Shown here piece by piece: positions 1,141 to 43,897 of a stretch of DNA of 63,901 nucleotides. Each line of letters starts with the position of its first letter. The stretch's first letter is position 1. The notes beneath the pieces are model-generated. The model saw only the letters and a list, made by a program, of their open reading frames with translations, made no database searches and had not been told where the DNA came from. This DNA comes from a bacterium (GTDB lineage: Bacteria; Myxococcota_A; UBA9042), in the NCBI GenBank assembly GCA_030425545.1, contig JAUIAC010000004.1:1-63901 (forward strand), given 5' to 3'. The position numbers were made by a program, and so were the translations under genes.

Positions 1141-1271
1141 GTGACCACCTGTCGACCGCGTCCGCGGTACGGGCACGATGCCGCACAGGTGAGGGGCACG
1201 CCCTCGACTGCAGCGGTCGCCGTGAAGGAACGGGCGGAAGGCTATCCACCGACGGGGTAAAGATGCCCCAA

Positions 1272-4326: not shown

Positions 4327-4358
4327 GGAGCCTCCTGGGCGGGGCCACAGGGGGGCCG

Positions 4359-6746: not shown

Positions 6747-6908
6747 GGTGGGTTCTCCAGTGGGCGTCGCGCCCCGCGTCTTGGAGCGTTTCGCGCGCGG
6801 AAAGGTAGCAGAGCCGCCAGGGCGTCGCACGGCCGGAGCCGAAATGCGACGCGGGCGCCAGGGAGCGATCCCTGACGCCCGCGCGCTGACAGGTAGTCGG
6901 CGGCAGGC

Positions 6909-9469: not shown

Positions 9470-10282
9470 TAGAGCTCGGTGAGAATCCGCCCGATGGGCG
9501 CACGCGAGCGCCGAACGGTAGCCAATACCCCTGTGAGCGTCAACAGAACAACAGGGTCACCCGACCCCGTCTCTGCCCCCCCACTTGCGGCGTGTGGGCG
9601 GCATCCGTCACACAAATCTCGACCGCTGCCCCGCGGGGCCAACACGCGCGCGCGGCGGTCCCAGAGGCGCTGGGGGCGCCACGCCAGCACCGGCAGCGCG
9701 CCGCCGCTGGCGACCGGCAAGCGACCGGGCGGTCCCCAGCGCCTACACGTATCTACACATCTGCCCCTGACATCCGGCCGCTTCGCCGACGCCAGGTGCT
9801 CCGCCGCGACCAGAGGGCGTGCCCGGGGACGTCACTGCTGGCGCGTCCGCGCGTTCGTCGGTGCGCCACGCGCGCGGGCGCCATGACGGGAACGTCCATG
9901 GCGACGCAATTGGGGAGGTGACAGGGGCCGCGACGCCGCGTCCGGGAATCGCTCCCCGTACGCGGGTCGGCAGGGTTGACTTTGACAAAGCGGCCCCCTG
10001 AGAATCAGCGCCCTTTGTGCGGCTTCGTCTGTCCAGACGCGTCGCTCGAGGCACCTCTGGTCTCTCCATCGCAGTGCCGCCAAGGCACCGAGAACAAAGC
10101 GGTCGTGAGGGAGCGGTGAGGCAACTCACCCCTCGCAAGCCCCGCGCGGAGAGCCGACGTGAAGCGAGGCCCGGCACCGGGTCTCAAGTGGGATCGCGCC
10201 GCAGCGGATGCGGCCGGACCATGGCGAGTCGCACCTCGCCTCCCTGCCGATGGTTCACCCGTGGCGACATCAGGAGCTCCCC

Positions 10283-12103
10283 GTGACCAAGCGCAACCTT
10301 GCGTCTTTCTTTCCCTCCACCCTCCTTCAGCGGCCTCGTCTGAGCTTGGGCGTGGGGCTGGCGATCGCCGGCACCCTGCTCGCTGGACTCCCGTCGTGTG
10401 ACTCCACCGCGAAGTTCAGCTTGCCCGACCGCAAGTTCAACGACGTGCAGGTGGTCTCTGGCTTCCCGGCGCACATCGACGACACCGGCACGATCGTCCG
10501 TGTCTGCGGCGCGCCGCTCGACGACAGCGATGTGCAGCTGTCGCCCAACGGGGTGGAGTTCAACCTGAACTTCGTCTCCACGGAGCTGAAGAGCCCGCTC
10601 TGCGACGGCGATCGCGACCAGAGCATCAAGGAAGGTGAGCTCATCGAGCTGACCCGCGTTCGGGCCTCCGGGTCCAACAGCACCGTCGGTCCGAACAACT
10701 TCCAGATCAGCCTCAACTGCATCGAGCCCCGTGGCGTGCCCGGCGCTGCGTGCACCACCGGCATCGCCGGGCAGGCGCTGACGCCGGCCGCGGTCAACTA
10801 CGTCAGCCTGGCGGGACGCTGCGACCCCTCGCGCGAAGACACCCGCCTCAACGTGGCGCTGGTGCTCGACCACTCCGGCTCGGTCTCCGGCTTCATTGAC
10901 GGCAAGACCAACAAGGAAGACAACCCGGCCAAGCGCATCCCGCCCGAGACGCTGAAGCCCTCGGACCCGAGCAACTCGCGCATCCCCGCCGCCGAGTTCT
11001 TCGTCGAGAGCCTCAACGCGCGCGACCGCCTCATCGGCTACTACTTCAACGAGAAGGTGAACGTGCAGGTCGCGGGCAGCGACAACATCACGTGCGTCGG
11101 CGGCTCCAAGGACGGCAAGAAGTGCGTCCAGGACTCGGACTGCCCTGGCGGCAGCGGCTGCTTCTCGGGCGGCGCGTCCGACGGCGACAGCTTCGAGGTG
11201 CTCAGCCTCAGCGACCAGCAGAAGAAGGCCTTCGGCTCCAACGCCGCGAGCCGCAAGTACCTGCTGGCCGCGCTCGACGACAAGGTGAAGTACGGCGGCG
11301 AGGGCCGGTCCAACGTGTGGGACGCCATCGACACCTCGTACGCGCACCTCAAGGACAACATCCCCACCGGCGTGCGCCACGTGGTGGTGCTCACCGACGG
11401 GCCCGAGACCTGCAGCCACGGCGAGGACTTCACCTACGTGGGCAGCGACGGCAAGTGCCGGTCGCCGTGCCTCAACGCGCAGCAGTCCTACGAGGCCCTG
11501 CGCAAGCGCATGTACGAGGACGGCTACCCGGTGGTCGTGCACATCGTGCAGTTCCAGGCCCAGGGCTACCGCGAGCCCGACGCCAAGCTGCAGGAGCTCG
11601 CGTGCCGCACCGGCGGCACCTACCAGTTCATCAACACCCAGGAGATGAACCTGAGCGACGGTCAGGTGATCTCGAGCGCGCTGCGCCGCGCCATGGCCCG
11701 TGTCCGCTACGCCCTCTCCGGTTCGTGGCGCGTCGGCCTGCGCCTCGGCAAGAAGGACGAGGCCATGCCTGAGGTCAAGACCGGCCTGATGCACGCGGCC
11801 GACGGCTTCATCAAGGTGCAGAACGAGAACTTCCCGAGCCTCGAGCAGGTCTACGCCACGCTCACGTCGTGGAAGTTCGGCCCCGAGAGCGGCAACGAGG
11901 ACCGGCGCGTCCTCTTCCGCAAGGGCTGCAAGACCCACGCAGACTGCGGCGGCACCGACGAGTGCGGCGCCAACCACTGCAGCGTCGACGGCACCTGCGT
12001 CGCCGGCGCCGCGCCGGACAAGCTGCCCTGCGGCCCGGCTGGCCAGGGTCAGGTCTGCTGCAGCGGCGTCTGCAGCGCTGACTGCGCGTCCGCCTGCAAC
12101 TGA
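10283..12103 (+). CDS. von Willebrand factor A (vWA) domain lipoprotein with Cys-rich C-terminus
   Basis: The GTG at 10283 follows AGGAG by 6 nt; ATG 10250 and ATG 10208 are alternatives. The signal ends LLAGLPSC (lipobox). MIDAS-like residues are LVLDHSGSVSG and VVVLTDG. The C-terminus is CKTHADCGGTDECGANHCSVDGTCV...CCSGVCSADCASACN. Confidence 0.85.
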   Translation: MTKRNLASFFPSTLLQRPRLSLGVGLAIAGTLLAGLPSCDSTAKFSLPDRKFNDVQVVSGFPAHIDDTGTIVRVCGAPLDDSDVQLSPNGVEFNLNFVSTELKSPLCDGDRDQSIKEGELIELTRVRASGSNSTVGPNNFQISLNCIEPRGVPGAACTTGIAGQALTPAAVNYVSLAGRCDPSREDTRLNVALVLDHSGSVSGFIDGKTNKEDNPAKRIPPETLKPSDPSNSRIPAAEFFVESLNARDRLIGYYFNEKVNVQVAGSDNITCVGGSKDGKKCVQDSDCPGGSGCFSGGASDGDSFEVLSLSDQQKKAFGSNAASRKYLLAALDDKVKYGGEGRSNVWDAIDTSYAHLKDNIPTGVRHVVVLTDGPETCSHGEDFTYVGSDGKCRSPCLNAQQSYEALRKRMYEDGYPVVVHIVQFQAQGYREPDAKLQELACRTGGTYQFINTQEMNLSDGQVISSALRRAMARVRYALSGSWRVGLRLGKKDEAMPEVKTGLMHAADGFIKVQNENFPSLEQVYATLTSWKFGPESGNEDRRVLFRKGCKTHADCGGTDECGANHCSVDGTCVAGAAPDKLPCGPAGQGQVCCSGVCSADCASACN

Positions 12104-12198: not shown

Positions 12199-12960
12199 AT
12201 GCATCACTCCAGGATCGCACGCCGCCGTAGGGCGACGCCCCTGACGACCACGATCGCCACCGCGTTGGCCCTCGTGTTCGCGGTCAGCGCCACGGCCGCC
12301 ACCGCGCAGGCCAAAGAGAAGGACTTCCGTCAGCCCATCGACCATGAGCTGGAGAAGTACTGGAACGTCGAGCTCGCCGTGCCCACGCTGACCAACCCGG
12401 CGTACACGCACAAGGGCGCGCTCGAGGGCACCATCGGCATCGGCCTCGTCCCCAACGACTCGTACTACCTGCCGCTGCCCATCACGCTGCGCGGCACGTA
12501 CCACATGACCGAGTCGCTGGCGCTGGAGCTCTCCGGCAGCTACCTGGGGCTCGGCGCCAACAGCGACCTGCACGCGTTCTTGCTCGACGCCAACGGCATC
12601 AACCTGCTCGACGGCGCGCGCAACCCCGCCCAGATGTGGATGTCGGCCGCCATCGACCTGATGTACAGCCCCTTCCACGGCAAGCTCGGTGTGTTCGACC
12701 AGAAGATCTCGAGCTTCGACATCGCCCTGGTCGCGGGCGCAGGCATGATCGCCGCGAACATCGACGAGACCCCGGAGAACGCGAAGGACGAGCTCACGAG
12801 CACCTTCCTGCCGGCGGGTCACTGGGGCGTCACGCTCCGCTTCTTCCTGAAGGAGTGGCTGACCGTGCGGGCCGACTACCGTCAGTTCGTCTACAAGCCC
12901 TACGACTCCGCGCTCTTCCCCGTCGAGATGACGGTGGGAGTCTCGTTCTTCTCGAAGTGA
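12199..12960 (+). CDS. small outer-membrane beta-barrel protein (GltA/B-NfsA/B-like, myxobacterial OMP type)
   Basis: The ATG at 12199 follows GAGGAG. The signal peptide ends ATAQA. Alternating hydrophobic strands are visible, and the C-terminus is MTVGVSFFSK. It is paralogous to the next gene (shared motifs GxVPND, HGKxGxFD, DYRQFxY). Confidence 0.8.
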   Translation: MHHSRIARRRRATPLTTTIATALALVFAVSATAATAQAKEKDFRQPIDHELEKYWNVELAVPTLTNPAYTHKGALEGTIGIGLVPNDSYYLPLPITLRGTYHMTESLALELSGSYLGLGANSDLHAFLLDANGINLLDGARNPAQMWMSAAIDLMYSPFHGKLGVFDQKISSFDIALVAGAGMIAANIDETPENAKDELTSTFLPAGHWGVTLRFFLKEWLTVRADYRQFVYKPYDSALFPVEMTVGVSFFSK

Positions 12961-13055
12961 GTCACGCCCCGCGGCGCGCCTTCGGACCCCAGGTCCTCGG
13001 GCCCCGCACCGCGCCCGACTACGCCACGCTCTCAAGCCAACTTGAGGTTCTGCAG

Positions 13056-13934
13056 ATGACCAGCCATCGCCTCCTCGCCGCCTTCGCAGCGGTCGCGCTC
13101 CTCGCCAGCCCGGCAGCCGCGCAGCAGCCCCCCGCCGACGGGGGAGCCGCCCCTGAGGCCGCCGCCCAGCCCGCCGCGCCTGCGGCAGCTCCGGCCGCCG
13201 CCCCAGCCGCCGCTCCGGCAGCAGCGCCCGCCGCCGACAAGCCCGCGCCCGCCGAGGCCGCCCCGGCGGTCGGTGGTGGCATGCAGGCCTACGGCGTCAC
13301 CGACGAGGCCGTGCCGGTCGGCGCGCGCCTCGAGTGGGCCAAGCGCCGCAAGCTCAAGGTCATCCAGAAGCGCGACGTGCTGAAGCAGGGGCGCCACGCC
13401 TTCTCGCTCATCGGCGGCGTCGTCCCCAACGACGACTTCTTCGCCTACATCAACACGGGCCTCGCCTACTCCTACTACTTCTCCGAGGACATCAACCTCG
13501 AGGTCCGCGGCGCCTACACCGTGCCGCAGAAGACCAGCCTCGAGGGCAGCCTGAGCGCGCCGCGCCCCGAAGGCCCTGGCCTCGACGTGCGGCTGCCCCA
13601 GACCCTCAACGCGCACTTCTCCGTGGCCGCGATGTGGAACCTGGTGCACGGCAAGATCGGCTTCTTCGACACCAAGCTGACCGAGTTCGACCTCGGCCTC
13701 AGCTTCGGCATCGGCGCGCTGATGACGGAGATCCAGGGCAAGGCCAAGGAGCAGAACGAGAAGAAGTTCGACGCGCAGGGCAACATCGGCCTCACGTGGC
13801 ACTTCTACCTCTCGCAGCGCTGGGCGTTCCGCGTGGACTACCGGCAGTTCTTCTACCCGAAGGAGGGGGGCGGCGTGTCCTTCCCCATCGCGGCCTCCGC
13901 AGGCCTGACCTTCTTCACCGCGCCGTTGGACTAG
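13056..13934 (+). CDS. small outer-membrane beta-barrel protein, paralog of the preceding gene, with Ala/Pro-rich linker
   Basis: The start MTSHRLLAAFAAVALLASPAAAQ is a signal peptide. A PAAPAAAPAAAPAAAPAAAP linker follows. Then come GGVVPNDDFF, VHGKIGFFDTKLTEFDL and RVDYRQFFYP, ending AGLTFFTAPLD. Confidence 0.8.
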   Translation: MTSHRLLAAFAAVALLASPAAAQQPPADGGAAPEAAAQPAAPAAAPAAAPAAAPAAAPAADKPAPAEAAPAVGGGMQAYGVTDEAVPVGARLEWAKRRKLKVIQKRDVLKQGRHAFSLIGGVVPNDDFFAYINTGLAYSYYFSEDINLEVRGAYTVPQKTSLEGSLSAPRPEGPGLDVRLPQTLNAHFSVAAMWNLVHGKIGFFDTKLTEFDLGLSFGIGALMTEIQGKAKEQNEKKFDAQGNIGLTWHFYLSQRWAFRVDYRQFFYPKEGGGVSFPIAASAGLTFFTAPLD

Positions 13935-14018
13935 CGGGCGACACCGCGCCGCATCGTCGGCGCGGGCCGCCGACCGCACCCCACGACCGCACACGACATC
14001 CGCCCTTCGGAGCGACCC

Positions 14019-15947
14019 ATGAAGACCTGGTCCACCCCTACTCTCTGCCTCCGCACGCTGCGCGGCGCCGCCCTGGCGCTGGCGCTCGGCGTCACGCTGC
14101 TGGCCGCTCCCGACGCGAGCGCGCTGACGGTCGACGAGGTCATCACGCTGGTGAAGCTCGAGATCCCGGACGCGCAGATCATCAAGAAGATCGACAAGGA
14201 CGGCTCGACCTTCAAGCTGAAGCCCTCCGAGATCCTCAAGCTCAAGAAGCAGGGCGTCAGCGACAAGCTGATCCGCTACATGCTCGCCACCGCCAGCCGC
14301 AAGCCGGGCGCCACGGGCGGGACGGTCACCGCCAAGCCCGCCGCCGAGAAGCCGAAGCGCGAGCTCACCGCCGCCGAGAAGGCCGCGGAAGAGGCGCGGA
14401 TGAAGGAAGAGGCGCTCCGCCTCGCCGAGGAGCAGCGCTCCCGCGAGGAGGGCCAGCGCAAGGCCTTCGCCGGCAAGGTGCTCAAGCGGGGCCAGACCCT
14501 CGCCAAGTCGGGCCGCTGGGTCGAGGCCGTGCAGGTCTTCACCAAGTTCGTCAACGACGGCGTCGGCGGCGTGCCCTTCGCGCCGGACTCCAACGAGGCC
14601 TACATCGCGACCTACGGCATCGCCAACGCCCTCGCCCGTGCCGGTCTGCTGCAGTCCGCCGCCAACAAGCTGCTCGAGGTGGTGCGCGCCGGTCCGGAGA
14701 AGCTCTTCTTCCAGGAGGCCTTCGAGCAGCTGCGCCAGCTCCGCCGCAAGATCAACTACCGGCCGCCGGAGCTCGAGGACCTGACCCGCTTCTCGGTCGT
14801 CGGCAAGCCCAAGCCCTTCCAGGACTCGTTCCACTACTTCGTCGGTGAGTTCCTGCACGACTTCGGTCTGAGCACCGAGGCCATCCCCTACCTCGAGAAG
14901 GTCTCCACCAAGGGCAAGGACTACCCCCGCGCCCAGTACCTGCTCGGCCTCGTCGCCTTCCAGGACGAGTCGCTGGGGGTCGCGGACAAGGTCCGCCGCG
15001 CTGCCACCGCCTTCCAGAACGCGGTCGTCGCCGGCGAAGAGACCAAGAACCAGGGCATGGTCGACCTGAGCTACCTGGCCCTGGCGCGCCTGGCCTACAC
15101 CTACCGTCAGTACGACGCCGCCATCTTCTACTACCGCAAGATCTCCAAGAACTCGCCGAAGATCGCGCGCGCCTTCTACGAGAGCGGCTGGTCCTACTTC
15201 CTCAAGAACGACATCAGCCGCGCGCTGGGCATCTTCCACGCCCTGCACAGCCCCTACTTCAAGCACCACTTCTACCCGGAGCTGTGGATCCTCGAGGCGA
15301 CGATCTACGTCAACACCTGCAACATCACCGAGGCGACTGAGGCCATCAAGCGCTTCCAGAGCGACGTGCTCGTGCTCGGTCCGCCGCTGCGCGACTTCCT
15401 CAAGCGCAACCGCCGCCCCGAGCAGTTCTTCCAGGGCGTCGTCGCCGCGGTGAACACGCCCAAGACCGCGACCCTGCCGCGCAAGCTCGTGAGCCCGGTC
15501 CTACAGAACGTCGAGTTCTACAACCTCTACAAGACGGTCAAGCAGATCGAGCGCGAGGAGCGCAAGATCAAAGGTCGTCTGCAGCGTCTCGGTGGCTTCG
15601 GCCAGGAGCTGCTCGCCAAGCTCGGCCAGCTCAAGGGCGAGCGCATCGCCGAGGCGGGCGTGGTGGTGCAGCGCACCCTGCGTCAGGTCCAGAAGGAGAT
15701 CGGCGAGTACCAGGACCGGCTGGACGAGCTCAAGATCGACCTCGAAGAGAAGAAGCTGCAGGCCCTCGACGACAAGATCGCGCAGACCGAGAACAAGAAG
15801 AAGCTCGGCAAGACCGTCGAGCAGCAGGGCGCCGTGGCCATCGCCGGCTCCGACAGCATGGTGTGGCCCTTCGAGGGCGAGTTCTGGAAGGACGAGATCG
15901 GCTCGTACCGGTCCTTCCTCAAGAGCAAGTGCACGGAGGACCGCTAG
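14019..15947 (+). CDS. secreted TPR-like helical-repeat protein with C-terminal coiled coil (GltC/NfsC position)
   Basis: GGAG lies 6 nt upstream of the ATG. The signal peptide ends PDASA. TPR-like segments include YLALARLAYTYRQYDAAIFYYRKI and AFYESGWSYFLKND. Confidence 0.85.
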   Translation: MKTWSTPTLCLRTLRGAALALALGVTLLAAPDASALTVDEVITLVKLEIPDAQIIKKIDKDGSTFKLKPSEILKLKKQGVSDKLIRYMLATASRKPGATGGTVTAKPAAEKPKRELTAAEKAAEEARMKEEALRLAEEQRSREEGQRKAFAGKVLKRGQTLAKSGRWVEAVQVFTKFVNDGVGGVPFAPDSNEAYIATYGIANALARAGLLQSAANKLLEVVRAGPEKLFFQEAFEQLRQLRRKINYRPPELEDLTRFSVVGKPKPFQDSFHYFVGEFLHDFGLSTEAIPYLEKVSTKGKDYPRAQYLLGLVAFQDESLGVADKVRRAATAFQNAVVAGEETKNQGMVDLSYLALARLAYTYRQYDAAIFYYRKISKNSPKIARAFYESGWSYFLKNDISRALGIFHALHSPYFKHHFYPELWILEATIYVNTCNITEATEAIKRFQSDVLVLGPPLRDFLKRNRRPEQFFQGVVAAVNTPKTATLPRKLVSPVLQNVEFYNLYKTVKQIEREERKIKGRLQRLGGFGQELLAKLGQLKGERIAEAGVVVQRTLRQVQKEIGEYQDRLDELKIDLEEKKLQALDDKIAQTENKKKLGKTVEQQGAVAIAGSDSMVWPFEGEFWKDEIGSYRSFLKSKCTEDR

Positions 15948-16091
15948 GCCTGGCCGGCTCCGCGGCGCGACCCTGTCGTGCTGTCCGAGTCCCAGTGAGC
16001 GTGTCCTGAATTGAATCGATGCCGTCCCCGCTCCGTCTACGCCTCTGAGGCGAGACCACGAGGGGGGAGGGCGAGCGAGAGGAAAAGCGAG

Positions 16092-19000
16092 ATGACCAGC
16101 CCCTTCATGGCGCGCTTGCACGCGACATCCCCGGCTTCAGCTCTGGCGACAGCGGCCTTCGTGGCCGCCGCCTGCCTCCCCGGAGTCGCGCTCCTGACGC
16201 CCGCCGACGCGGTCGCCCAGGCGCCAGTCGACGTTGGCGTCGGCGCAGCGAAGAAGAAGGCCGACAAGAAGAAGTCGCTCTTCAACGACACGCTGAAGAA
16301 GGAGAAGAAGAAGAAGCCCAAGGAGGACCCGAACGCGGTCAAGAAGGGCGGCTTCAACTACGAGAAGCTCGAGCAGCTCTCCTTTGACGCCCGCGCCCGC
16401 CAGCTGCAGGCCCGCAAGTCGCAGACGCGCCAGAACCTGATCAAGACCATGGAGCGCCTGATCCAGCGCAAGGGCGGCGGCGGCGCGCGCTACTCGCGCA
16501 TGGCCAGCATTTACTTCCGCCTGGCGGAGACCTACTGGGGCGAGACGCACTACCAGTACTTGCTCGCGCGCGACAAGTACAACAAGGAGATGGAGGCCTT
16601 CGAGAAGAAGATCCGCTCCACCAAGCCCACCGAGCCGGTCGAGAACTACCAGAAGTCCATCGAGTACTACGAGAAGGTCCTGCAGCAGTTCCCGAACTAC
16701 AAGCGCATCGACGAGGTGCTCTACCGCCTCGGTAAGGCCGCGCTGAGCCAGGGCAAGGCCCTCGGCGACAAGGTGCTGAGCAACAAGGGCGTGCAGTACC
16801 TCAACCAGCTCGTGCAGAAGCACCAGAGCAGCCGCTACATCGCCAACGCCCACCTGGCGCTCGCAGAGCACTTCTTCGACAGCAACAACCTCACGCTGGC
16901 GAAGATGAACTACGAGCAGATCGTCCAGAACTACAAGCGCTCGCCGATGTTCAACTACGCCCTCTACAAGCTGGGCTGGGTGTACTTCAACCTCCGCGAG
17001 TTCCGCCGCACGGTCGAGACCTTCCAGGCCGTGGTGCGCGAGATCTCCAAGCTCAAGGGCAAGGCGCTCAGCTTCAAGGAGCAGGCCCTCAAGGACCTGG
17101 TGCCCGCCTACGCCGAGCTCGAGCGCGGCTGGCCCGAGGCCAAGGCCTACTTCGCCAAGGTCGAGGGGGAGAAGCAGATGTGGGTGCGCCTCGAGCGCCT
17201 GGCCCGCATCTACGTCGCCAACGACAAGCAGGACCTCGCCATCGAGCTCCACAGCCACTTCATCGACAGCAAGCCGACGGACGCCCGCTGCGTCGAGTGG
17301 TGGGAGACCATCATCGACATCTACCTCAGCCTCGAGGAGTTCAAGGGCATCGAGGGGGCGATTCGCAAGTTCCTGGCCTTCACCGACGAGCGCACCAGCG
17401 CCTGGGTCGCGGCCAACAAGAACAACGAAGACGCCATGGAGAAGGCCCGCGAGTTGGGTGAGAAGTACCTGCTCTACATGAGCAACCACTTCCACCAGAA
17501 GGCGCAGAAGGTCGAGGACGAGACCAAGAGCCTCGACGCCGCCAAGCCCTTCTACGAGAAGGCCGCGTTCGACTACAAAGAGTTCGTCCGCCGCTACCCC
17601 AACAGCAAGAAGGCGTACATCGTCCAGTTCTACTACGCCGAGATCCTCTACCTGCAGCTCAAGCAGTTCGACGCTGCGCGCAAGCAGTACGTCCGCGTCA
17701 TCGAGCTCGACCGCAAGGGTGAGTTCCTCGAGGACGCGGCGCTGGGTGTCATCTACTCGGTGGAGCAGCTGCTGCACCAGACCCGCGCCCGCTACGACTA
17801 CGACAAGAAGGCCTGGATCCCCGACGCCACGGCGCCGCCGCTGCTCGCCATCGAGACCACGGACGGCAAGTCGTCGGTGAAGACCACGAAGAAGAAGAAG
17901 GACGACCTCGTCAGCGAGGAGGAGATCAAGCAGGCCCAGGTGCCGAAGAAGCGCCAGGAGCTGCATCCCCTCGAGAAGGACTACGTCAACGCCGCCGACA
18001 AGTACGTCGAGCTCATGGAGTCGCTCAAGAAAGAGAAGGGCGAGAAGTGGATGCGCAAGAAGAAGAAGGGCAAGGACGTGCCTGGCATCATGTACCTCGC
18101 CGCGGCGACCTACTACGAGCGGGGCCAGTACCCCGAGGCCATCCAGCGTCTGGAGATCGTCTACCGCTACGACGGCAAGCGCATCGAGTCCGAGATCGCG
18201 GTCAAGACCCTCATCGACATCTACGCCCGCCAGAAGAACTGGGTGAAGATCGAGGAGTGGGCCCGCAAGATGCTCGACCGCCGCAAGAACAAGCTCTTCA
18301 AGAAGAAGGATCTGCGGAAGTACGTCGCCATCAGCGTCGGCGAGCAGGCCCGCGAGCTGGCCGAGCGCAAGGACTTCGACGGTGCGCACGCCAAGTACGA
18401 CACCATCCTCCGCGAGTTCCGCCGCGACGAGCCCGAGCTGGCCGCCGTCTCGCTCTTCAACAAGGCCGCCATCTACGAGATCCAGAAGGAGGAGAAGAAG
18501 GCGATTCAGACCTACGAGCGCGTCGTGAAGGAGTTCAAGAAGTCCAAGGTCGCGCCGGAGGCCATGTTCAACATCGGCATGATCTACGAGGCCCAGACGC
18601 AGTTCCAGGAGGCCGCCGACTCGTTCCTGAAGATGGCCAAGATCCGCAAGAACGCGGACGCGGCCCAGGCGCTCATCAACGCCGGCTCCATCCTCAAGGC
18701 GCTTCGCCAACACGACCAGGCGGTCAAGGCCTTCACAGCCTTCGTCAAGCTCGCGCCGAAGATCGAAGACGGCCCCGACACCGCCCGTCTCAAGGCGCTC
18801 ATCCCTGACGCCAACCTGGAGATCGGGCGCGTCTGGGAGGCCGCCGGCAACATCAAGAAGGCGATGAAGGCCTACGGCACGGTGGCGAAGAAGTTCAAAG
18901 GACGTCCCGACCTGCAGGTCGAGGCCCTGGGCCGCATGCTCAAGCTCTACGTCGACGCCGACAAGGGCGCCAAGCGTCCGCGCAACAAGAAGAAGATCGT

Positions 19001-19721
19001 CAAGGCGATCACCAAGATCCAGGAGGCCTTCAAGCAGCCTGGCGCGCGCAAGGGCAACGCGGCGTACTACTTCGCCATGGGCCTCTTCCAGAGCGCTGAG
19101 TTCCTCTACAACGACTTCGCCAAGCTGACGCTGAAGAACGTGAAGAACGCCAAGGGCCTCAAGCCCATGCTCGAGAAGCAGGCCATCGCGCTCAAGGCGG
19201 CGGAGAAGTCGTACTTCGGGGTCATCGACGCCACCGCGGCGGGTCAGGGCAAGGACTTCGCTGCGTGCGCCGCCTTCAAGGTCGGCCTCATGTACTTCAA
19301 CTTCAAGGAAGACCTCTTCAACGCGCCGCTGCCCAAGCAGGTCGAGCGCGCCGTCGACGCGGGCTTCTACGAGGTCGAGGAGCGCTACCGTCAGGCCATC
19401 GAGCAGGTCGCCGCGCCCATCGAAGAGCAGTCCCTCGTCGCCCTCCGCGGCGCGATCCGGACCGCGCACAACCTCGGCGCCTACAACCGCTGCTCCCGCC
19501 AGGCGGGCGAGTACGCGGCCAAGGTCAACCCCGAGGAGTACCCGACGGTGGAGAAGGACCCGAACCTGCCCAAGGCGACCACGGCGCTGAACTCGAACAA
19601 GACGACGACCACGTCGACCTCGGCCGCGTTCATCACGCGTGTCCGTCGCGGCAAGTTCACCGTCGACTTCAAGCCCAGCAACATCCAGGTGAAGCAGAAG
19701 AAGGCGGCCAAGCGCCAGTAG
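16092..19721 (+). CDS. large (1,209 aa) secreted TPR-repeat protein with Lys-rich N-terminal region (GltD/NfsD size and position)
   Basis: The ATG at 16092 follows GAGAGGAAAAG. The signal ends PADAVAQA. A KKKADKKK...KKEKKKKPKED tract follows. Many TPR-like units are present (YYEKVLQQFPNYKRIDEVLYRLGKA, etc.). Confidence 0.85.
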   Translation: MTSPFMARLHATSPASALATAAFVAAACLPGVALLTPADAVAQAPVDVGVGAAKKKADKKKSLFNDTLKKEKKKKPKEDPNAVKKGGFNYEKLEQLSFDARARQLQARKSQTRQNLIKTMERLIQRKGGGGARYSRMASIYFRLAETYWGETHYQYLLARDKYNKEMEAFEKKIRSTKPTEPVENYQKSIEYYEKVLQQFPNYKRIDEVLYRLGKAALSQGKALGDKVLSNKGVQYLNQLVQKHQSSRYIANAHLALAEHFFDSNNLTLAKMNYEQIVQNYKRSPMFNYALYKLGWVYFNLREFRRTVETFQAVVREISKLKGKALSFKEQALKDLVPAYAELERGWPEAKAYFAKVEGEKQMWVRLERLARIYVANDKQDLAIELHSHFIDSKPTDARCVEWWETIIDIYLSLEEFKGIEGAIRKFLAFTDERTSAWVAANKNNEDAMEKARELGEKYLLYMSNHFHQKAQKVEDETKSLDAAKPFYEKAAFDYKEFVRRYPNSKKAYIVQFYYAEILYLQLKQFDAARKQYVRVIELDRKGEFLEDAALGVIYSVEQLLHQTRARYDYDKKAWIPDATAPPLLAIETTDGKSSVKTTKKKKDDLVSEEEIKQAQVPKKRQELHPLEKDYVNAADKYVELMESLKKEKGEKWMRKKKKGKDVPGIMYLAAATYYERGQYPEAIQRLEIVYRYDGKRIESEIAVKTLIDIYARQKNWVKIEEWARKMLDRRKNKLFKKKDLRKYVAISVGEQARELAERKDFDGAHAKYDTILREFRRDEPELAAVSLFNKAAIYEIQKEEKKAIQTYERVVKEFKKSKVAPEAMFNIGMIYEAQTQFQEAADSFLKMAKIRKNADAAQALINAGSILKALRQHDQAVKAFTAFVKLAPKIEDGPDTARLKALIPDANLEIGRVWEAAGNIKKAMKAYGTVAKKFKGRPDLQVEALGRMLKLYVDADKGAKRPRNKKKIVKAITKIQEAFKQPGARKGNAAYYFAMGLFQSAEFLYNDFAKLTLKNVKNAKGLKPMLEKQAIALKAAEKSYFGVIDATAAGQGKDFAACAAFKVGLMYFNFKEDLFNAPLPKQVERAVDAGFYEVEERYRQAIEQVAAPIEEQSLVALRGAIRTAHNLGAYNRCSRQAGEYAAKVNPEEYPTVEKDPNLPKATTALNSNKTTTTSTSAAFITRVRRGKFTVDFKPSNIQVKQKKAAKRQ

Positions 19722-19812
19722 TCCACTGCGAGGGCGGCGGGCTCACCCGCCGCTAAGGCCGCCGCTAGCGTCCGCACACCCAGCGCGACGACACAGTTTT
19801 CGAGGGATCATC

Positions 19813-21942
19813 ATGAAGCTTCGCATGCCCACACACAGCGCCCGACTCCAGCGTGCCAGACTCCAGCGTGCCCGACTCCAGCACGTCGGCCTCGTCCGCG
19901 CCGGCCTCCTGGCCACGGCGCTGCTCGTCGCCGCTCCGGCCATGGCCGCCGAGGGAGAGTACCTCCCCGAGCTGCAGGTCAAGGCGCAGGACGCGTACCG
20001 CAAGGGCCTCGAGGCGGCGCTGCGGCCGCTGCCCAAGTGCAACCCCTTCCGCATGGTCGACCGCACCGTCAAGGACAAGGACGGCAAGGAGACGAAGGTC
20101 AGCGGCTGCTGCCCGCTCGGCTTCGCCAGCCTGGGCTCGCGCTGCGTGCGCATCGCCCCGCCGACCTGCGCGCGCGTGGCCATCGAGAACCCTGCCGCCT
20201 GCCGCCTGACCCAGTGCGCCAAGTACGTCCGCGAGATCGAGGTCGACGCCGTCAGCAAGAAGGGCAAGAAGATCCCGAAGCTCGGCAAGGACGGCAAGCC
20301 GATCCCCGGGGAGTTCGAGAAGGCCAAGAAGGAGATCCCCTGTGAGCCCTGGAAGTCCACGGGCGAGCGCGACCTGACCTGCGAGCTCGACACCTACGAG
20401 TGCAAGAAAGAGGAGCTCGCGTCGGGCCCCGTGCGCTGGTGCACCGACTTCATGAAGAAGCTCTCGGTGCCGGCCGAGGCCAAGGAAGGCGAAGAGGCGC
20501 CCGCCGCCGGCAAGATGGTCGACAAGTTCTTCCAGTGCGCGCCCGGCTCCGCGGACTGCCAGATGGTCCTGCGGGAGTGCGCCGGCAAGGAGCTGACCAG
20601 CAACAAGACGCTTTACGGCGACCGCACCCCGTGCAAGATCGGCGAGTGGGTCGACCAGAACGACGGCGGCAAGTGCAAGCCCTACACCTGCCCCGCGCAG
20701 TGCCGCACCTCGGACAACCGCTGCGCGGCCTGCGGCCCCGACTACATCGGCGCTTCGCAGAACTTCAAGGCGGCGCACGACGCTGACGAGCACTTCTACG
20801 AGGCCTACTTCAACCACGGCATGGCGCTCGAGCGGCTCGGCAAGTACGCCGAGGCGGTGGCCGTGTACCAGAAGGCCCAGTCGGTGAACCCGCGCAACGA
20901 CCGTGAGCGCAAGCTGCGGCTCTCTGCGCAGGCCTTCATGGCGCGCGCCAAGCTGGCCGAGGGTGGTCGCTTCGCTGAGGCCGGCAACGTGTCCAAGGCC
21001 AAGCAGCTGCGCGACGCGGCTCGGTCCATCTGCGAGAGCATCCGCGGCCAGGATCCCGACAACACGGTCGCCAACAACGTGCTCGCCCAGTACTGGCTCG
21101 ACAACGGCAACCTCGAGCTGGCCGAGAACTTCGTCAAGCAGGTGCTGCGCGTGAACCGCGAGGACACGGTCGCCTTGAACATCCGTGGCCTGGTCAACCT
21201 GCGCCAGAAGAAGAACGAGATCGTCCGTTGGATCCTCGAGGAGAAGGTGCTCGCGCTCGACCCGGCCAACCCCGAGGGCTACGCCAACCTGGGCCTCGCC
21301 TTCGTCCGCCTCGGCGAGCTGCCCAAGGCCGTCGTCGCCTTCGAGCGCGCCGTGAAGCTCAAGCCCAACTCGGTGCCCGCCCGCCTCAACCTCGGCGCGA
21401 TCTACATCGAGTACCTCAACTACGAGCAGGCCGAGCGTCAGTACGCCCAGGCGCTCAAGCTCGAGCCCGAGAACCTCGAGGCCACCGTGGGCTACGCGCT
21501 CGCGCTCGAGGGCCGTCGGAACCCCAAGAAGGCGGCCGGGCTCTACGAGCGCGTGCTGGCGAAGGACCCAAAGCGCGCCGCGCTCATCACGCGGCTCGCC
21601 ATCATCTACGAGAAGGCGCCCTTCAACGACGGCAACAAGGCGATCACCTACTGGAAGCGCTACCGCAAGCTGGCGCAGCTGCCGAGCCAGGCCGAGGCCA
21701 AGGCCGCCAAGACCTCGCTGGAGGCCGAGTGGAAGAGCCACATGTCCAAGCGTGTGCCGCGGCGGGGGGCCAAGCGTGAGGCCCACCTGGCGCACCGCAA
21801 GGAGCTCAAGGAGAAGCTGTCCAAGGCGCAGCTGACCTGGAAGAACGTGCTCGCGATCGACTCCCGCATCCAGGCCATCGAGATGGGCATGAAGATGGCC
21901 AAAGAGGCCAAGCAGGAAGAGAAGAAGAAGCCGAACTCCTGA
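19813..21942 (+). CDS. secreted protein with Cys-rich N-terminal domain and canonical TPR repeats (GltE/NfsE position)
   Basis: A GAGGGA RBS precedes the start. The signal peptide ends APAMAAEG. A Cys-rich segment of about 300 aa follows. The TPRs include GYANLGLAFVRLGELPKAVVAFERAVKLKPNS. Confidence 0.85.
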   Translation: MKLRMPTHSARLQRARLQRARLQHVGLVRAGLLATALLVAAPAMAAEGEYLPELQVKAQDAYRKGLEAALRPLPKCNPFRMVDRTVKDKDGKETKVSGCCPLGFASLGSRCVRIAPPTCARVAIENPAACRLTQCAKYVREIEVDAVSKKGKKIPKLGKDGKPIPGEFEKAKKEIPCEPWKSTGERDLTCELDTYECKKEELASGPVRWCTDFMKKLSVPAEAKEGEEAPAAGKMVDKFFQCAPGSADCQMVLRECAGKELTSNKTLYGDRTPCKIGEWVDQNDGGKCKPYTCPAQCRTSDNRCAACGPDYIGASQNFKAAHDADEHFYEAYFNHGMALERLGKYAEAVAVYQKAQSVNPRNDRERKLRLSAQAFMARAKLAEGGRFAEAGNVSKAKQLRDAARSICESIRGQDPDNTVANNVLAQYWLDNGNLELAENFVKQVLRVNREDTVALNIRGLVNLRQKKNEIVRWILEEKVLALDPANPEGYANLGLAFVRLGELPKAVVAFERAVKLKPNSVPARLNLGAIYIEYLNYEQAERQYAQALKLEPENLEATVGYALALEGRRNPKKAAGLYERVLAKDPKRAALITRLAIIYEKAPFNDGNKAITYWKRYRKLAQLPSQAEAKAAKTSLEAEWKSHMSKRVPRRGAKREAHLAHRKELKEKLSKAQLTWKNVLAIDSRIQAIEMGMKMAKEAKQEEKKKPNS
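19841..19885 (+). repeat. three tandem 15-bp repeats inside the signal-peptide n-region (ARLQR ARLQR ARLQH)
   Basis: The DNA reads cccgactccagcgtg / ccagactccagcgtg / cccgactccagcacg. Confidence 0.9.
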
Positions 21943-21976
21943 ATCGCTGCGGGTGCGCCTGCGCCCACGCTCCGCA

Positions 21977-22021
21977 GAGAGGGCCGCGACCGAGCACCAT
22001 CGGCGCGGCCCTCTCGCGTTT
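21977..22021 (+). terminator. GC-rich hairpin terminator candidate after the TPR gene
   Basis: GAGAGGGCCGCG (21977-21988) pairs perfectly with CGCGGCCCTCTC (22004-22015). The loop is 15 nt. The tail GCGTTTGGG gives only a short T tract. Confidence 0.5.
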
Positions 22022-22185
22022 GGGCCCGCTGAACGGGGCGTGGCCACCCGCGTGCACACCGAACTTCAGGGCATAGTTCTTGCGACGCCAAGTCGCCATC
22101 CGGTACCCTCCCGCGCCTGTGCGTCCGTGCGCCTGCTGTCCACCCCGGCGGCGTCCACCCGGCCGCTCAATCTCAGGAGCTCTCC

Positions 22186-22446
22186 ATGAAACGCATCATC
22201 ACCCGCGCCGCCGTCGTCCTCGTCACGCTGTCCCTCGGGGCCGCAGTCGCCACCCCGGCGCTGGCGAAGGACAAGAAGGCTCGCTTCTACGACTTCTCCG
22301 ACCAGCTCATCGACGGTGACGTGAAGAAGCCGAGCACCATCTGGATGGAGTCCCGCACGCGCGCCAAGTTCGAGAAGCTGCTCAAGCTGAAGAAGTCGTT
22401 TCGCCAGGCGATGATCGACACCAGCAAAGAGCCGATCCTGAAGTAG
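22186..22446 (+). CDS. small secreted protein (86 aa), Lys-rich (GltF/NfsF position)
   Basis: AGGAG lies 7 nt upstream of the ATG. The signal peptide is MKRIITRAAVVLVTLSLGAAVATPALA. The mature part starts KDKKARFYDFSDQLIDGDVKKPS. Codon usage looks native. Confidence 0.6.
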   Translation: MKRIITRAAVVLVTLSLGAAVATPALAKDKKARFYDFSDQLIDGDVKKPSTIWMESRTRAKFEKLLKLKKSFRQAMIDTSKEPILK

Positions 22447-28418: not shown

Positions 28419-30401
28419 ATGTCGACCCTTTTCGCTCAGCCCGCATCCCGCCGCCTGCAGCGGCTGGCCCTCGTGGTCGGCCTCGCCACGCTCTGGACCC
28501 TCCCTGGCTGCGGCACCGACAACCAGCTCGAGACCTTTCCGCAGATCGACTTCACCGTCGAAGGTCAGCCCAACAAGGACAAGTGGGAGTTCGCCGCGGA
28601 CACCACCGGTGGTCAGCTCACCAAGCAGGCCAAGGTCCTGGTGACCAACTCCGGTCAGAACACGCTCTCCCTCAAGGAGATCAAGTTCGACACGCAGAAC
28701 CCCTACCTCAAGCTCGTCTACCCCAAGGGCAAGCCGAGCTTCCCCGTGAGCCTCGAGCCCAACGAGCGTCTGCAGCTCGAGGTCCGCTTCGCGCCCGACC
28801 CGAACATCGAGAACAACGAGCCGGCCACGCTGACCATCCAGCACAACGACGCTGAGAAGCCGGAGATCAAGGTCCTCTTCGAGATCCGCCTCAACGGCGC
28901 CACCGTCGAGCTCAAGCAGAAGACCCAGGAGTTCGTGAACCCTTCGGCCGCCAACCCGCCCACCGCGTGCATCGGCTTTACCAACAAGGGCAACGCGCCG
29001 CTGATCTTCAAGAAGGCGTACATGGAGACGGCGACCAAGTTCTACACGCTGACCAAGACGCCGGACCAGGGCTCGACCATCGCCGCGCGCGGGCAGGGCG
29101 ACAACCCGAAGAACAACCCCAAGTACCTCGACGTCTGCGTGCGTCTGACCCCCGGCGACAAGGGCGCGGACTACTCGGCCAAGCTCGTCATCGAGACCAA
29201 CGACAAGTCCAACCCCTTCGCCAAGGTCGTGTTCAACGCTCGGTGGGAAGAGGACAACGTCTTCAAGGTCACCTGCGCGACGCCGGACGGCAGCCTGAAG
29301 TACGACTTCACCACGACCAAGAGCGGCATCGAGGAGAAGTGCTGCAACATCTACAACGAGGGCCCCAGCGGCATGCTCATCAGCAAGGTCGGCGTGCAGG
29401 CCCTCAGCAGCGGCAACCAGGACCTGGCCGACAGCCTCTACGGCGTGAAGCTGAAGAAGAAGCTGCCCGACGGCTCGTTTGAGACCGTGAGTCTGCCGCG
29501 AAGCATCAACCCCTCGAAGTCGCTCTACTTCTGCGTCGAGTACATCTACCCGAACGACAACAAGACCACGAGCGGCGAGCTGGTCATCAACTACTCGCAG
29601 GCCAACATCCCGGCCGTGCTGCCCTTGCCGGTGGTCGCCGGCGCGTGCGACACGCCGGACCTGGTCGTCGGCCCCAGCAACACGCCCTTGTGGATGCAGA
29701 CCAAGCTCGGCGAGAAGGCGGTCAAGGAGCTCGTGGTGACCAACCAGAGCTGCGCGCCGATGCAGATCCTGCAGGTGTGCACCACGCAGGTCGCCGGCCA
29801 GGGCTCGGACTCGAACCCCTGCGGCAACGCCACGCTGCTCTCCGCCCACTTCGGCCTCGACAAGGAGGTCGGCCTGACCTCGGTGAAGCCCTGGGGCTCG
29901 CTGCCGATCGCGGTGAAGTTCGAGCCGCCGAACGAGAAGTACAAGACCATCAACCACTTCCTCAACGTGGTCTACTGCCCGGGGGCGTGGTCTGGCGACA
30001 AGTGCTCCGAGACCATCGTGTCCCGCACGGTCAACCTGACGGGCACGGTCGAGGCCGACGCGTCCAAGCTGCCGAAGCTGCCGACGGTCAAGGTCGCGGC
30101 CTTCAACGGCCAGACGCCCAAGGTCGGCCAGCCCTTCAAGCTCGAGGCCACGTCCACCGAGGGCGAGTGGCCCATCGGCCAGTACGGCGCCCACCTCTGG
30201 GTGCTGAAGTCGCGGCCGTCTGGGTCGAACCTCTGGATCAGCGACGAGTTCCAGAGCACCGACGACCCCTACCTGACCATCACGCCCGACGTGAAGGGCT
30301 CCTACGTGGTCGTCGCGCAGGTCCAGTCCGTCGACGACGGCAACCCGTCGAACCTCGCGTGGAGCGAGCAGTTCGAGTTCAAGTTCGACGTGACCGAGTA
30401 G
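28419..30401 (+). CDS. lipoprotein with Ig-like repeat array and C-terminal PKD-like domain
   Basis: The ATG at 28419 follows AGAGAGGA. The signal ends LWTLPGC (lipobox). Repeats such as VLVTNSGQNTLSLKEIKF are present. The C-terminus reads YVVVAQVQSVDDGNPS. Confidence 0.85.
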   Translation: MSTLFAQPASRRLQRLALVVGLATLWTLPGCGTDNQLETFPQIDFTVEGQPNKDKWEFAADTTGGQLTKQAKVLVTNSGQNTLSLKEIKFDTQNPYLKLVYPKGKPSFPVSLEPNERLQLEVRFAPDPNIENNEPATLTIQHNDAEKPEIKVLFEIRLNGATVELKQKTQEFVNPSAANPPTACIGFTNKGNAPLIFKKAYMETATKFYTLTKTPDQGSTIAARGQGDNPKNNPKYLDVCVRLTPGDKGADYSAKLVIETNDKSNPFAKVVFNARWEEDNVFKVTCATPDGSLKYDFTTTKSGIEEKCCNIYNEGPSGMLISKVGVQALSSGNQDLADSLYGVKLKKKLPDGSFETVSLPRSINPSKSLYFCVEYIYPNDNKTTSGELVINYSQANIPAVLPLPVVAGACDTPDLVVGPSNTPLWMQTKLGEKAVKELVVTNQSCAPMQILQVCTTQVAGQGSDSNPCGNATLLSAHFGLDKEVGLTSVKPWGSLPIAVKFEPPNEKYKTINHFLNVVYCPGAWSGDKCSETIVSRTVNLTGTVEADASKLPKLPTVKVAAFNGQTPKVGQPFKLEATSTEGEWPIGQYGAHLWVLKSRPSGSNLWISDEFQSTDDPYLTITPDVKGSYVVVAQVQSVDDGNPSNLAWSEQFEFKFDVTE

Positions 30402-30449
30402 CGGGGCCGCCGGCGCGAGGCGACGCCGTGTGTCGCGTGAGGTGACACC

Positions 30450-32794: not shown

Positions 32795-32952
32795 CGATGA
32801 GTCTCCGTCGCAGCCCTTGTAGCGCCGGCGTGGGGCTCGCAGCAACCGTCAACGCCGCTCGGGGCGGGGCCATACGCCTGCCGGCGGGGCTCACCAGGGT
32901 CGGCCTGTCGGCTCACCCCGGCGCGCGAGCGCGCTGGAAGCGCGCTGACGTG

Positions 32953-32981
32953 TTGCCGCGATCTGGCCCCGCTCCTATAAG
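32953..32981 (+). promoter_or_regulatory. candidate sigma-70-type promoter for the triple-DsbA gene
   Basis: The sequence is TTGCCG-N17-TATAAG, about 55 nt upstream of ATG 33036. This is the best -10 match I found in the window. Confidence 0.45.
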
Positions 32982-33035
32982 TTGACCGCAGCCTCGCCGA
33001 ACCGTCACGCGTGGCCACAGAGGAGCGCCCAGCCG

Positions 33036-35237: not shown

Positions 35238-35274
35238 GCTCGCCCTCGCTGCGAGCGGGGGGATGCCGCGCCGG

Positions 35275-40300: not shown

Positions 40301-40732
40301 GGCCCGAGGCTAGCCGCTGCCGCCCCTCTTGGCCACGCGCGGTGGACCTGCCCCCGAGCGGACATCGCGACCCATCGCGGGTGGGTTCGTCCCGCACCAG
40401 CGCCGAGCGAATCGCCTTGCAGCGCCGGCGCCTCGGGCCCCGCGGCCGGTCGAACGAGCGGTGAACATCGCAGTCAACACGCGGGAAACGTGAGCAAAGT
40501 AACGAAGTCCTTGACCGCCAATCGCCCTCGGCTAGAGTCCGCCCTCCGCCACGGCCGTTCAGCCCCGTCCACCGTCTCTGACGGCGACGGGCGTGCGCCG
40601 TGGCGTCGTCGCCCGCACACGCTACCTCAGGTGTGTGTTCGGGCACCTCCCGCGCCGGGGCTGCACCTCGCAGCCGCTCTGCCACAGGCTCTTCCAGGGC
40701 GCGGCCCAACCCTTCCAGTGAGGTCAAGCAGC

Positions 40733-43862: not shown

Positions 43863-43897
43863 CGCCGCAGCCTGGCTGCAGCAGGTGCGCACCCCTC

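Follow-up and report, generated by a model that had tools for sequence, protein, structure and literature searches.

We analysed a 63,901-nucleotide stretch of DNA (hereafter the window) from a bacterium of the GTDB lineage Myxococcota_A, UBA9042 (assembly GCA_030425545.1, contig JAUIAC010000004.1, positions 1 to 63,901), in which a unit of genes spanning 2.1–30.4 kb almost certainly encodes the outer-membrane (OM) and periplasmic module of a Glt-family machine that belongs to a distinct lineage. The Glt machine is a model for bacterial focal adhesions, and nearly all knowledge of it comes from one species. The unit consists of six core genes, A–F, encoding two OM β-barrels, three tetratricopeptide repeat (TPR) proteins and a small secreted protein, and of seven accessory lipoprotein genes, one for a Cys-rich protein with a von Willebrand factor A (vWA) domain and six for proteins with immunoglobulin (Ig)-like domains. 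The distinct lineage is common in uncultured Myxococcota. Its description overturns nothing: Glt-like paralogs and their modular gain and loss were already established in 2011, and the new part is the neighbourhood in which the core genes reside.

Organization of the Glt-like unit

Genes were called by the GC content of third codon positions (GC3) because the GC content of the window is high (64–76%), and a public Logan contig bearing an identical locus provided a second, independent gene caller. The Logan calls of 606, 253, 292, 642, 1209, 709, 86, 730 and 1118 aa have the same sizes as the GC3 calls, so the six colinear core genes (253, 292, 642, 1209, 709 and 86 aa) reported in a preliminary description of this DNA are real, with correct coordinates and sizes. 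All six are intact and have a coding-type GC3 of 0.93–0.96. From the vWA lipoprotein gene, which the preliminary description overlooked and which lies immediately upstream of the first barrel gene as part of the same A–F unit, through the last Ig-like gene (end 30401), all genes are on the plus strand and are separated by intergenic gaps of 85–244 bp. Three further large genes at 2119–9287 are encoded on the minus strand, divergent from the vWA–A–F genes (Table 1).

The core proteins compared with Glt components

The reference for comparison was the glt locus of the cultured Anaeromyxobacter oryzisoli SG63 (L069), checked with NCBIfam. The route to this locus was an exhaustive C-protein search, NCBIfam labelling of exemplars, three of which passed the GltC cutoff, and a scan of a genome collection with an alignment of the clade of these three, which yielded the 80 best gltC loci, none of them an nfs locus. 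In A. oryzisoli, GltC (713 bits), GltE (291.9 bits), CglF (129.7 bits), GltG (782 bits) and CglE/GltH (124 bits) all score above cutoff, and two TIGR04565 barrels are present. The order barrel-barrel-C-D-E-F is common to several Anaeromyxobacter-type glt loci. All six window proteins match their positional counterparts in the verified locus, which bears out the proposal that the order and sizes of A–F mirror Glt. With six positional blastp matches, homology is detectable along the whole core, and sequence comparison indicates that the resemblance to Glt-family components is true homology, not coincidence. The gltC/D/E core and gltA/B/F are all present, colinear and significantly similar, in line with the broad definition of a Glt-like cluster (Luciano et al. 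2011).

The two barrels are paralogous, as first described (31% identity over 175 aa, E = 2e-21), and both pass the 60-bit cutoff of TIGR04565 in the NCBIfam search that the preliminary description had recommended, with 88.2 bits for the 253-aa and 81.3 bits for the 292-aa protein. The former is 26% identical to GltA (E = 6e-17) and the latter 27% identical to GltB (E = 1e-13) by blastp. The paired barrels adjoin the gltC-like gene and are reciprocal best hits with verified GltA and GltB. Between its signal peptide and the barrel, the 292-aa protein has an Ala/Pro-rich low-complexity linker (13120–13260), AAPAAAPAAAPAAAPAAAPAADKPAPAEAAPA, which by analogy with the N-terminus of GltB may be a periplasm-spanning tether that touches the C protein.

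The C, D and E proteins carry TPR repeats in a domain scan, in agreement with their original description. The C protein aligns to positions 60–621 of the 622-position GltC model NF033756 (E = 1e-58), and its 199.6 bits fall below the equivalog cutoff of 450 bits, verified GltC proteins scoring 479–713 bits. In blastp it aligns with verified GltC at 22.5% identity (E = 4e-32), and its clade keeps the GltC C-terminal signature motifs EGEYWxDE..G.Y...C and LHSP.F...(Y/F)PE. The D protein aligns with verified GltD over 1144 aa at 22.5% identity (E = 1e-58, blastp) and matches other Anaeromyxobacter-type glt loci with E-values of 5e-56 to 2e-66; its only NCBIfam matches are generic TPR models, because true GltD likewise has no dedicated model. 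The E protein matches the GltE model NF033758 (E = 2e-22) with 79.8 bits against an equivalog cutoff of 225 bits and 291.9 bits for verified GltE, and its residues 310–580 are 23% identical to the latter (E = 4e-8, blastp). The 86-aa F protein, whose signal-like N-terminus, read directly from the sequence, agrees with its description as secreted, matches the CglF/GltF model NF033764 (E = 1.8e-10) with 40.7 bits, below the equivalog cutoff of 90 bits and the 129.7 bits of verified GltF, and is 23% identical to verified GltF by blastp (E = 6e-9).

Several segments of the core proteins lie outside these alignments. The N-terminal ~195 aa of the C protein (14019–14600) do not align to true GltC, the alignments beginning at residue 197; this region contains a short domain that the window-type clade has kept (consensus ITxEEIxTLxKLGxPxxxIIKxI...EILxLKKxGV), and a charged segment rich in E, R and A comes after it. 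The N-terminal ~300 aa of the E protein (19813–20740) form an extension with 21 Cys that does not align to GltE. Only in the subclade to which the window belongs did we see this long form of E (705, 709 and 662 aa); the E proteins of subclade II and of the locus in the metagenome-assembled genome (MAG) FJ087 measure 442–541 aa, and some subclade III loci have E open reading frames (ORFs) of ~610–700 aa. In two related loci, a second small F-like gene directly follows F (16034–16282, 82 aa, in L007; 17886–18197, 103 aa, in L103). Both give tblastn matches to the window F protein at 34–49% identity and no match to the CglF model.

A separate lineage of Glt-like clusters

We clustered the C proteins of 125 family representatives and computed a neighbour-joining tree with 200 bootstraps. 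The window C protein clusters with 40 representatives at a mean identity of 38%, and the cluster containing GltC is ~24% identical to this cluster; the window C protein itself is ~23% identical to true GltC. The window-type clade is recovered in 192/200 bootstraps (96%) and its inner core in 197/200. With the C, E and F scores below cutoff and the C protein in a separate clade, the locus is, as judged from sequence, not an ortholog of Glt. It appears to be neither Glt nor Nfs but a separate Glt-like lineage, Nfs being compared by published gene order and sizes only. Since glt has its nearest homologs in the nfs genes (Luciano et al. 2011, PMC3169522), Nfs would be expected to fall near the GltC cluster and not in the window clade. 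One candidate NfsC-like protein (P0290) was set aside when a homolog search showed that it belongs to another uncultured cluster type, C-D-F-G-E.

Homologs of the C and D proteins come only from MAGs and metagenomes of uncultured "Myxococcales", "Myxococcota" or "Deltaproteobacteria", with one possible exception, the 9.29-Mb single-contig assembly GCA_942493285.1. Searches with the window C and D proteins returned MAG proteins only and no named Glt or Nfs protein, and the cluster members of ten representatives included no cultured organism. Literature searches turned up no earlier account of such a cluster type, nor any of choice-of-anchor D proteins from Myxococcota.

Diversity of this kind is well documented in the family. 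The conserved core comprises gltC, D, E and G with aglRQS, to which an expansion in Myxococcales and Bdellovibrionales added gltA, B, F and others, and genomes contain several additional Glt-like copies of variable content whose function is unknown (Luciano et al. 2011, PMC3169522). Myxococcus xanthus has the Glt-like clusters G3 (nfs), G4 and G5, Haliangium three to four, one with C-D-E only, and Bdellovibrio four; motors are often unlinked from glt-like clusters, for example in Haliangium and also in M. xanthus (PMC3169522). The preliminary description had proposed a third, divergent member of this class of machines. The divergent Glt-like lineage stands, and "third" does not: with several Glt-like paralog clusters already published (PMC3169522), the count was overstated and the idea was not new.

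A Cys-rich vWA lipoprotein upstream of the barrels

The position upstream of the barrels is occupied by the vWA lipoprotein gene instead of a small GltK-like lipoprotein gene. Its product has the feature set of the CglB adhesin, which is a lipoprotein with a vWA domain bearing the MIDAS motif (metal ion-dependent adhesion site) and 4.1% Cys (PMC9946355). Specifically, the window protein has a lipobox, a MIDAS-vWA domain that is borderline in Pfam (VWA, E = 9.8e-5, 23.1 bits), and 25 Cys (4.0%). Among 21 orthologs, the MIDAS residues D-x-S-G-S, G-R-[ST] and D-G-P are invariant or nearly so and ~17 Cys are conserved; the lipobox is kept in nearly all. The vWA gene precedes the barrels in all 22 loci that have upstream DNA and a C protein at least 38% identical to that of the window (5/5 at 54% or more, 17/17 at 38–54%), and in 9/13 loci below 38%; in close relatives it is always linked to the core. 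A single-sequence AlphaFold model of the protein is unusable (predicted local distance difference test 32, predicted template modelling score 0.18). The best relevant match in the Protein Data Bank (PDB), the vWA domain of Plasmodium TRAP (E = 0.058), was not counted as evidence.

Ig-like lipoproteins

All seven accessory proteins, the vWA lipoprotein and the six Ig-like proteins, bear lipoboxes. Three Ig-like genes follow F and three lie divergently upstream, so that five accompany the one for an 1118-aa protein. The three proteins encoded on the minus strand are paralogs of the 730-aa protein (30–39% identical). The 1118-aa protein combines four choice-of-anchor D Ig-like domains (NF012200, 136.8 bits over four stretches) with a second MIDAS-vWA domain, whose DNSGS motif lies at residue 837 of the longest ORF. 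Its C-terminal 348 aa match the Bdellovibrio MIDAS adhesin model NF052240 (58.2 bits, E = 8e-16), and its C-terminus also matches the vWA region of the CglD model NF033765 (E = 1.1e-6) with 26.7 bits, a match that is confined to that region and far below the equivalog cutoff of 400 bits. CglD itself has 1130 aa, with the vWA domain in the C-terminal half and Ca-binding COMP-like repeats in the N-terminal half.

These genes are also part of the locus in relatives. Orthologs of the 6909–9287 protein hold the same divergent position, subclades I and II have an ortholog of the 730-aa protein at this locus, and L007 has an ortholog of the 660-aa protein. Ig-like genes are present in 3/3 loci with C at least 54% identical, 7/15 at 38–54% and 3/6 below 38%. 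Searches of PDB sequences with the Ig-like proteins gave a match to a PKD domain only.

Table 1 Genes of the Glt-like unit in the window
Feature	Position	Strand	Characteristics
Ig/PKD-like lipoprotein, ~735 aa	2119..4326	-	Pfam PKD + DUF1573; lipobox LAGC; ATG start; 30% identical to 730-aa protein over 778 aa
Ig-like lipoprotein, ~795 aa	4359..6746	-	Pfam Cep192_D4 + ASH; lipobox ASGC; 36% identical to 730-aa protein, E = 5e-133
Ig/PKD-like lipoprotein, ~792 aa	6909..9287	-	Pfam K319L-like PKD + HYDIN/VesB Ig; lipobox LAAC; 39% identical to 730-aa protein, E = 5e-139
Cys-rich vWA lipoprotein, 606 aa from GTG	10283..12103	+	Longest ORF 631 aa, 10208–12103; lipobox LPSC; MIDAS intact
GltA-like outer-membrane β-barrel, 253 aa	12199..12960	+	TIGR04565; best match Anaeromyxobacter GltA
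GltB-like outer-membrane β-barrel, 292 aa	13056..13934	+	TIGR04565; best match Anaeromyxobacter GltB; Ala/Pro-rich N-terminal linker
GltC-family periplasmic TPR scaffold, 642 aa	14019..15947	+	NF033756 sub-cutoff; blastp to verified GltC
GltD-family TPR "pillar" protein, 1209 aa	16092..19721	+	Near full-length blastp to verified GltD
GltE-family TPR protein, 709 aa	19813..21942	+	NF033758 sub-cutoff; residues 310–580 align to GltE
GltF/CglF-family small secreted protein, 86 aa	22186..22446	+	NF033764 sub-cutoff; blastp to verified GltF
Ig/PKD-like lipoprotein, 730 aa	22598..24790	+	Choice-of-anchor D + K319L-like PKD; lipobox, then Gly-rich linker
Ig+vWA lipoprotein, 1118 aa	24891..28247	+	NF012200 choice-of-anchor D x4; C-terminal MIDAS-vWA; lipobox LGAC
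Ig-like lipoprotein, 660 aa, final gene of unit	28419..30401	+	Choice-of-anchor D + Cep192_D4; lipobox LPGC

The inner-membrane link in the window and in related loci

GltG and GltH of the verified glt locus give no tblastn match in the window at E ≤ 1. A purpose-built hidden Markov model (HMM) of the TonB-like tail finds none in the window at E ≤ 10, NCBIfam finds none on ten proteins, and no window protein tested with NCBIfam matches GltH/CglE (NF033755). Pfam scans of the other GC3-supported window ORFs of at least ~90 aa, which left out the already classified A–F and Ig/vWA genes, detect no MotA/ExbB, ExbD/TolR or TonB domain. The tblastn, HMM and Pfam results agree with the preliminary description, which had seen no G, H or TolQR/ExbBD-like motor in the window.

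We examined ~65 related loci, with sensitive HMMs for the vWA protein and the TonB-like tail, and saw the conserved neighbourhood in more than 40. Counted over loci with enough DNA downstream of F, a G/J-type gene follows F in 0/2 loci with C at least 54% identical and in 1/12 at 38–54% (1/14 close loci in total), against 8/9 below 38%. The related loci in which such a gene was seen after F are L103, L123, L125, L128, L130, L135, L139, L142 and L147. In L123, L125 and L135, the product has an MJ0042-type zinc finger, as in GltJ, and an AgmX/PglI C-terminal domain (71, 69.5 and 55 bits, respectively; cutoff 40). A closer relative, L103, has a GltG-like gene after F with 92 bits to the tail model and 110 bits to the GltG model. 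An FHA-domain match upstream in L109 was rejected as a G gene, being a histidine kinase. The relatives with a J-like gene fall within the window-type superclade of the C tree. Because eight of nine distant loci keep G/J after F, the simplest reading of these sequences is that an ancestral gene at this site disappeared from the locus on the way to the window's lineage and was not replaced. This also bears on the suggestion that Ig-like lipoproteins stand where G and H would be expected: Ig-like genes do follow F, but a substitution is not supported, as distant relatives keep a GltJ/G-type gene. The Ig-like lipoproteins are probably adhesin cargo or output of the CglB/CglD kind and not replacements for G and H.

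The MAG FJ087 contains a G-less window-type locus (L170) together with a barrel-less C-D-F-G(FHA) cluster cut by contig ends (L008/L009). This second cluster type is seen in full in a relative, with the composition C (543–548 aa), D (1387–1402 aa), F (~100 aa), G (FHA, 576 aa) and E (288 aa), and adjoins an aspartyl/asparaginyl-tRNA synthetase gene. Because FJ087 holds both a G-less and a G-bearing cluster, the transducer could be supplied in trans in the window lineage, as this single example suggests. Downstream of F, subclade II (L002, L005 and L006) has genes for a DEAD/HRQ1-like helicase with MZB, an RNase_H_2-like protein and LPG_synthase_TM; the constancy of these unrelated genes indicates that the chromosomal surroundings of the locus are stable among distant relatives.

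Proposed mechanism and alternatives

In the M. xanthus model, the OM complex consists of GltA, B, H and K with CglB and GltC, and the periplasmic part of GltD, E, F, G and J (PMC9946355, PMC11761067). By analogy, we propose that the 2.1–30.4 kb unit encodes the OM platform and periplasmic shaft of a Glt-type trans-envelope machine with its own adhesins. First, the two barrels would hold or shield the Cys-rich vWA lipoprotein in the OM, as GltA/B/K do for CglB, and the C protein would dock under the barrels. The D protein would form the periplasmic pillar, to which E binds and which F connects to C. The 1118-aa Ig+vWA protein and the Ig/PKD lipoproteins would then act as surface adhesins that contact the substrate, like CglD. 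A TolQR-type proton motor would power the machine by way of a GltG/GltJ-type protein whose C-terminal domain is TonB-like, motor and protein alike presumably being encoded elsewhere in the genome. Adhesion-coupled gliding on surfaces, or directed transport of the adhesins over the cell surface, would be the most likely output. We assign this full mechanism a probability of roughly 0.6.

Several observations weigh against the full mechanism. The G/J, H and motor genes were not found in the window, and energy coupling would follow from analogy, with a search area of 63.9 kb. The CglB likeness of the vWA lipoprotein is one of common features and not of demonstrated homology: its Pfam VWA score is just under the gathering score of 23.8, no NCBIfam model matches it even at E ≤ 1, and its family profile gives nothing significant against PDB sequences. 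Because the C, E and F proteins miss the equivalog cutoffs, function is not transferable to them by orthology. Membership of the family does not predict output either, since G4 and G5 play no part in M. xanthus motility (PMC3169522) and Nfs builds the spore coat. No cultured carrier of the window cluster type is known, hence no phenotype.

A variant that we hold more tentatively, and that has well under an even chance, is a split machine that borrows the G/J link and the TolQR motor of a second, barrel-less cluster, or else a passive platform without a motor; in either form, the vWA adhesin would be the ancestral partner of the barrels. If so, the relationship of CglB with GltA/B in M. xanthus would go back to genes that were once linked.

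The main rival is a static OM and periplasmic scaffold that is independent of a motor and displays the vWA and Ig-like adhesins, so that the cell could attach, aggregate or make contact with prey but no directed movement would result. Such a scaffold would account for the near-complete absence of G/J after F among close loci (13/14) next to its presence in 8/9 distant ones, for the window in which no G, H or motor gene was found, and for the gain of lipoproteins (six Ig-like genes) and of the Cys-rich E extension in the window's subclade. However, the D, E and F proteins, which in the Glt model link to G/J and the motor, are strongly conserved where decay would be expected; in other Myxococcota, motor genes commonly lie apart from those of Glt components (PMC3169522); and the G-bearing cluster elsewhere in FJ087 accompanies a G-less locus. 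We therefore regard the static scaffold as unlikely, although it is the strongest of the competing explanations.

Less probable still is an Nfs-like machine that moves or organizes a surface polymer such as spore-coat or capsule polysaccharide. The succession of A-like, B-like and C genes and the single A–F operon fit nfsA–F better than the split G1/G2 glt clusters of M. xanthus, and Nfs illustrates that non-motility outputs are possible in the family (PMC3169522). Yet Pfam scans of the window reveal no genes of polysaccharide synthesis or export near the locus, the linked accessory genes encode MIDAS-vWA and Ig-like lipoproteins typical of adhesins, and the C protein lies outside the GltC cluster near which Nfs is expected to fall. 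A decaying, non-functional Glt-like remnant that lost its inner-membrane parts would also explain why G/J, H and motor genes were not found in the window, but is very improbable given that all genes are intact with a GC3 of 0.93–0.96, that the layout persists down to 38% identity across dozens of independent assemblies, and that little or no variation is seen in the MIDAS, lipobox, Cys and C-terminal GltC motif. Finally, a chance resemblance of an unrelated cluster of OM and TPR proteins to the sizes of nfs/glt products, conceivable inasmuch as TPR matches are promiscuous and the E protein also matches MamA, PilW, BcsC and other models, is already refuted by the 6/6 positional matches to the verified glt locus, including D (E = 1e-58), C (E = 4e-32) and the small F.

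The MIDAS-vWA lipoprotein beside the barrels in every close relative examined gives genomic support for barrels and vWA adhesin as one unit. Relatives with and without GltJ/G, and with one or two barrels, offer a naturally dissected series for learning which parts require one another. The distribution of the cluster suggests that many uncultured aquatic Myxococcota may possess a device for surface adhesion or gliding.

Comparison with known systems

The unit shares with the Agl-Glt system of Myxococcus and Anaeromyxobacter the GltA–F homologs of similar sizes, arranged barrel-barrel-C-D-E-F as in A. oryzisoli, and two associated vWA lipoproteins, one small and Cys-rich (CglB-like) and one of ~1100 aa with a C-terminal vWA domain (CglD-like). 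It differs in that its core is only 22–27% identical and falls in a separate clade, and that GltG, GltH, a J-type tail and AglRQS are not detectable in the window. The glt clusters of M. xanthus (G1, G2 and M1) exclude cglB and cglD, whereas the adhesin genes of the window lie inside the cluster (PMC3169522). Six extra Ig/PKD lipoproteins and the Cys-rich N-terminal extension of E are further differences; the N-terminal half of the 1118-aa protein consists of Ig-like repeats in place of the COMP-like repeats of CglD.

With Nfs (MXAN_3371–3378), the window shares a single colinear A–F series, with NfsA of 294, NfsC of 512, NfsD of 1219 and NfsE of 499 aa (PMC3169522). In gene layout, to which this comparison is confined, the single operon nfsA–H continues with G and H, whereas F in the window is followed by Ig-like lipoprotein genes, one with a vWA domain. 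Other Glt-like clusters follow the same principle of diverged C/D/E(/F/A/B) copies, such as G4 (MXAN_1919–23) and G5 (MXAN_1327–31) of M. xanthus (PMC3169522). In Haliangium, Hoch_3957–64 has the order B-A-(unassigned gene)-C-D-E-F-G, Hoch_6494–98 is a further set, and Hoch_2490–92, with C-D-E only, lacks G like the window (PMC3169522). The Bdellovibrio sets are Bd0828–38, Bd1474–81, Bd2369–77 and Bd3598–3601 (PMC3169522). Unlike the window, the published clusters are tabulated with no vWA or Ig-like lipoprotein partners, and most keep G (PMC3169522).

The second cluster type of uncultured Myxococcota has C, D, E and F homologs in common with the window-type locus, alongside which it occurs in FJ087, but it has G, lacks barrels, vWA and Ig-like genes, and its C protein groups with the GltC cluster. 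The Bdellovibrio MIDAS lipoproteins Bd0875 and Bd1483 likewise combine a lipobox with a MIDAS-vWA domain, and their model NF052240 matches the C-terminus of the 1118-aa protein; the score of 58 bits is far from the cutoff of 700, and the window proteins add Ig-like or Cys-rich domains. Bd0875 acts in prey invasion, and Bd1483 adjoins the gliding cluster Bd1474–81 by locus-tag numbering.

Surrounding features of the window

A single ORF of 6062 aa (44551–62739, plus strand, GC3 0.97) lies 14 kb downstream of the Glt-like unit and contains ~26 MopE-type Cys-rich "putative metal-binding" repeats, two TLDc domains, a C-type lectin domain and PQQ_2/BamB-like β-propeller segments. Its predicted product is a giant protein that is either secreted or located on the surface. 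The gene at 32982–35237 (plus strand) encodes 751 aa with three DsbA/thioredoxin-like domains, and exported Cys-rich proteins are encoded nearby, namely the vWA lipoprotein (25 Cys), E (21), the Ig-like lipoproteins (10–26) and the giant ORF; from its domains, the 751-aa protein may be a dedicated disulfide-forming enzyme for them.

The GC content is 63–70% in the Glt-like unit, rises to 72–76% at 30001–41000, right after the last Ig-like gene, and is 64–68% beyond 41 kb. The 30001–41000 segment encodes arginine deiminase-like, HEAT-repeat, DsbA-like, FAD-binding and matrixin-like protease proteins. The lower-GC stretch at 2–30 kb was considered as a horizontally acquired island and rejected, since the GC content of 41–63 kb is similar.

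A PP2C-type phosphatase (85–1176, minus strand) is encoded ~1 kb from the Glt-like unit and a 680-aa Ser/Thr protein kinase (41413–43455, plus strand) ~11 kb from it; a regulatory link of these enzymes with the unit is speculative. At 43788–43972 there are two tRNA-Gly(GCC) genes in tandem with 36 bp between them, and a tRNA-Leu(TAA) gene (63170–63257) follows the giant ORF.

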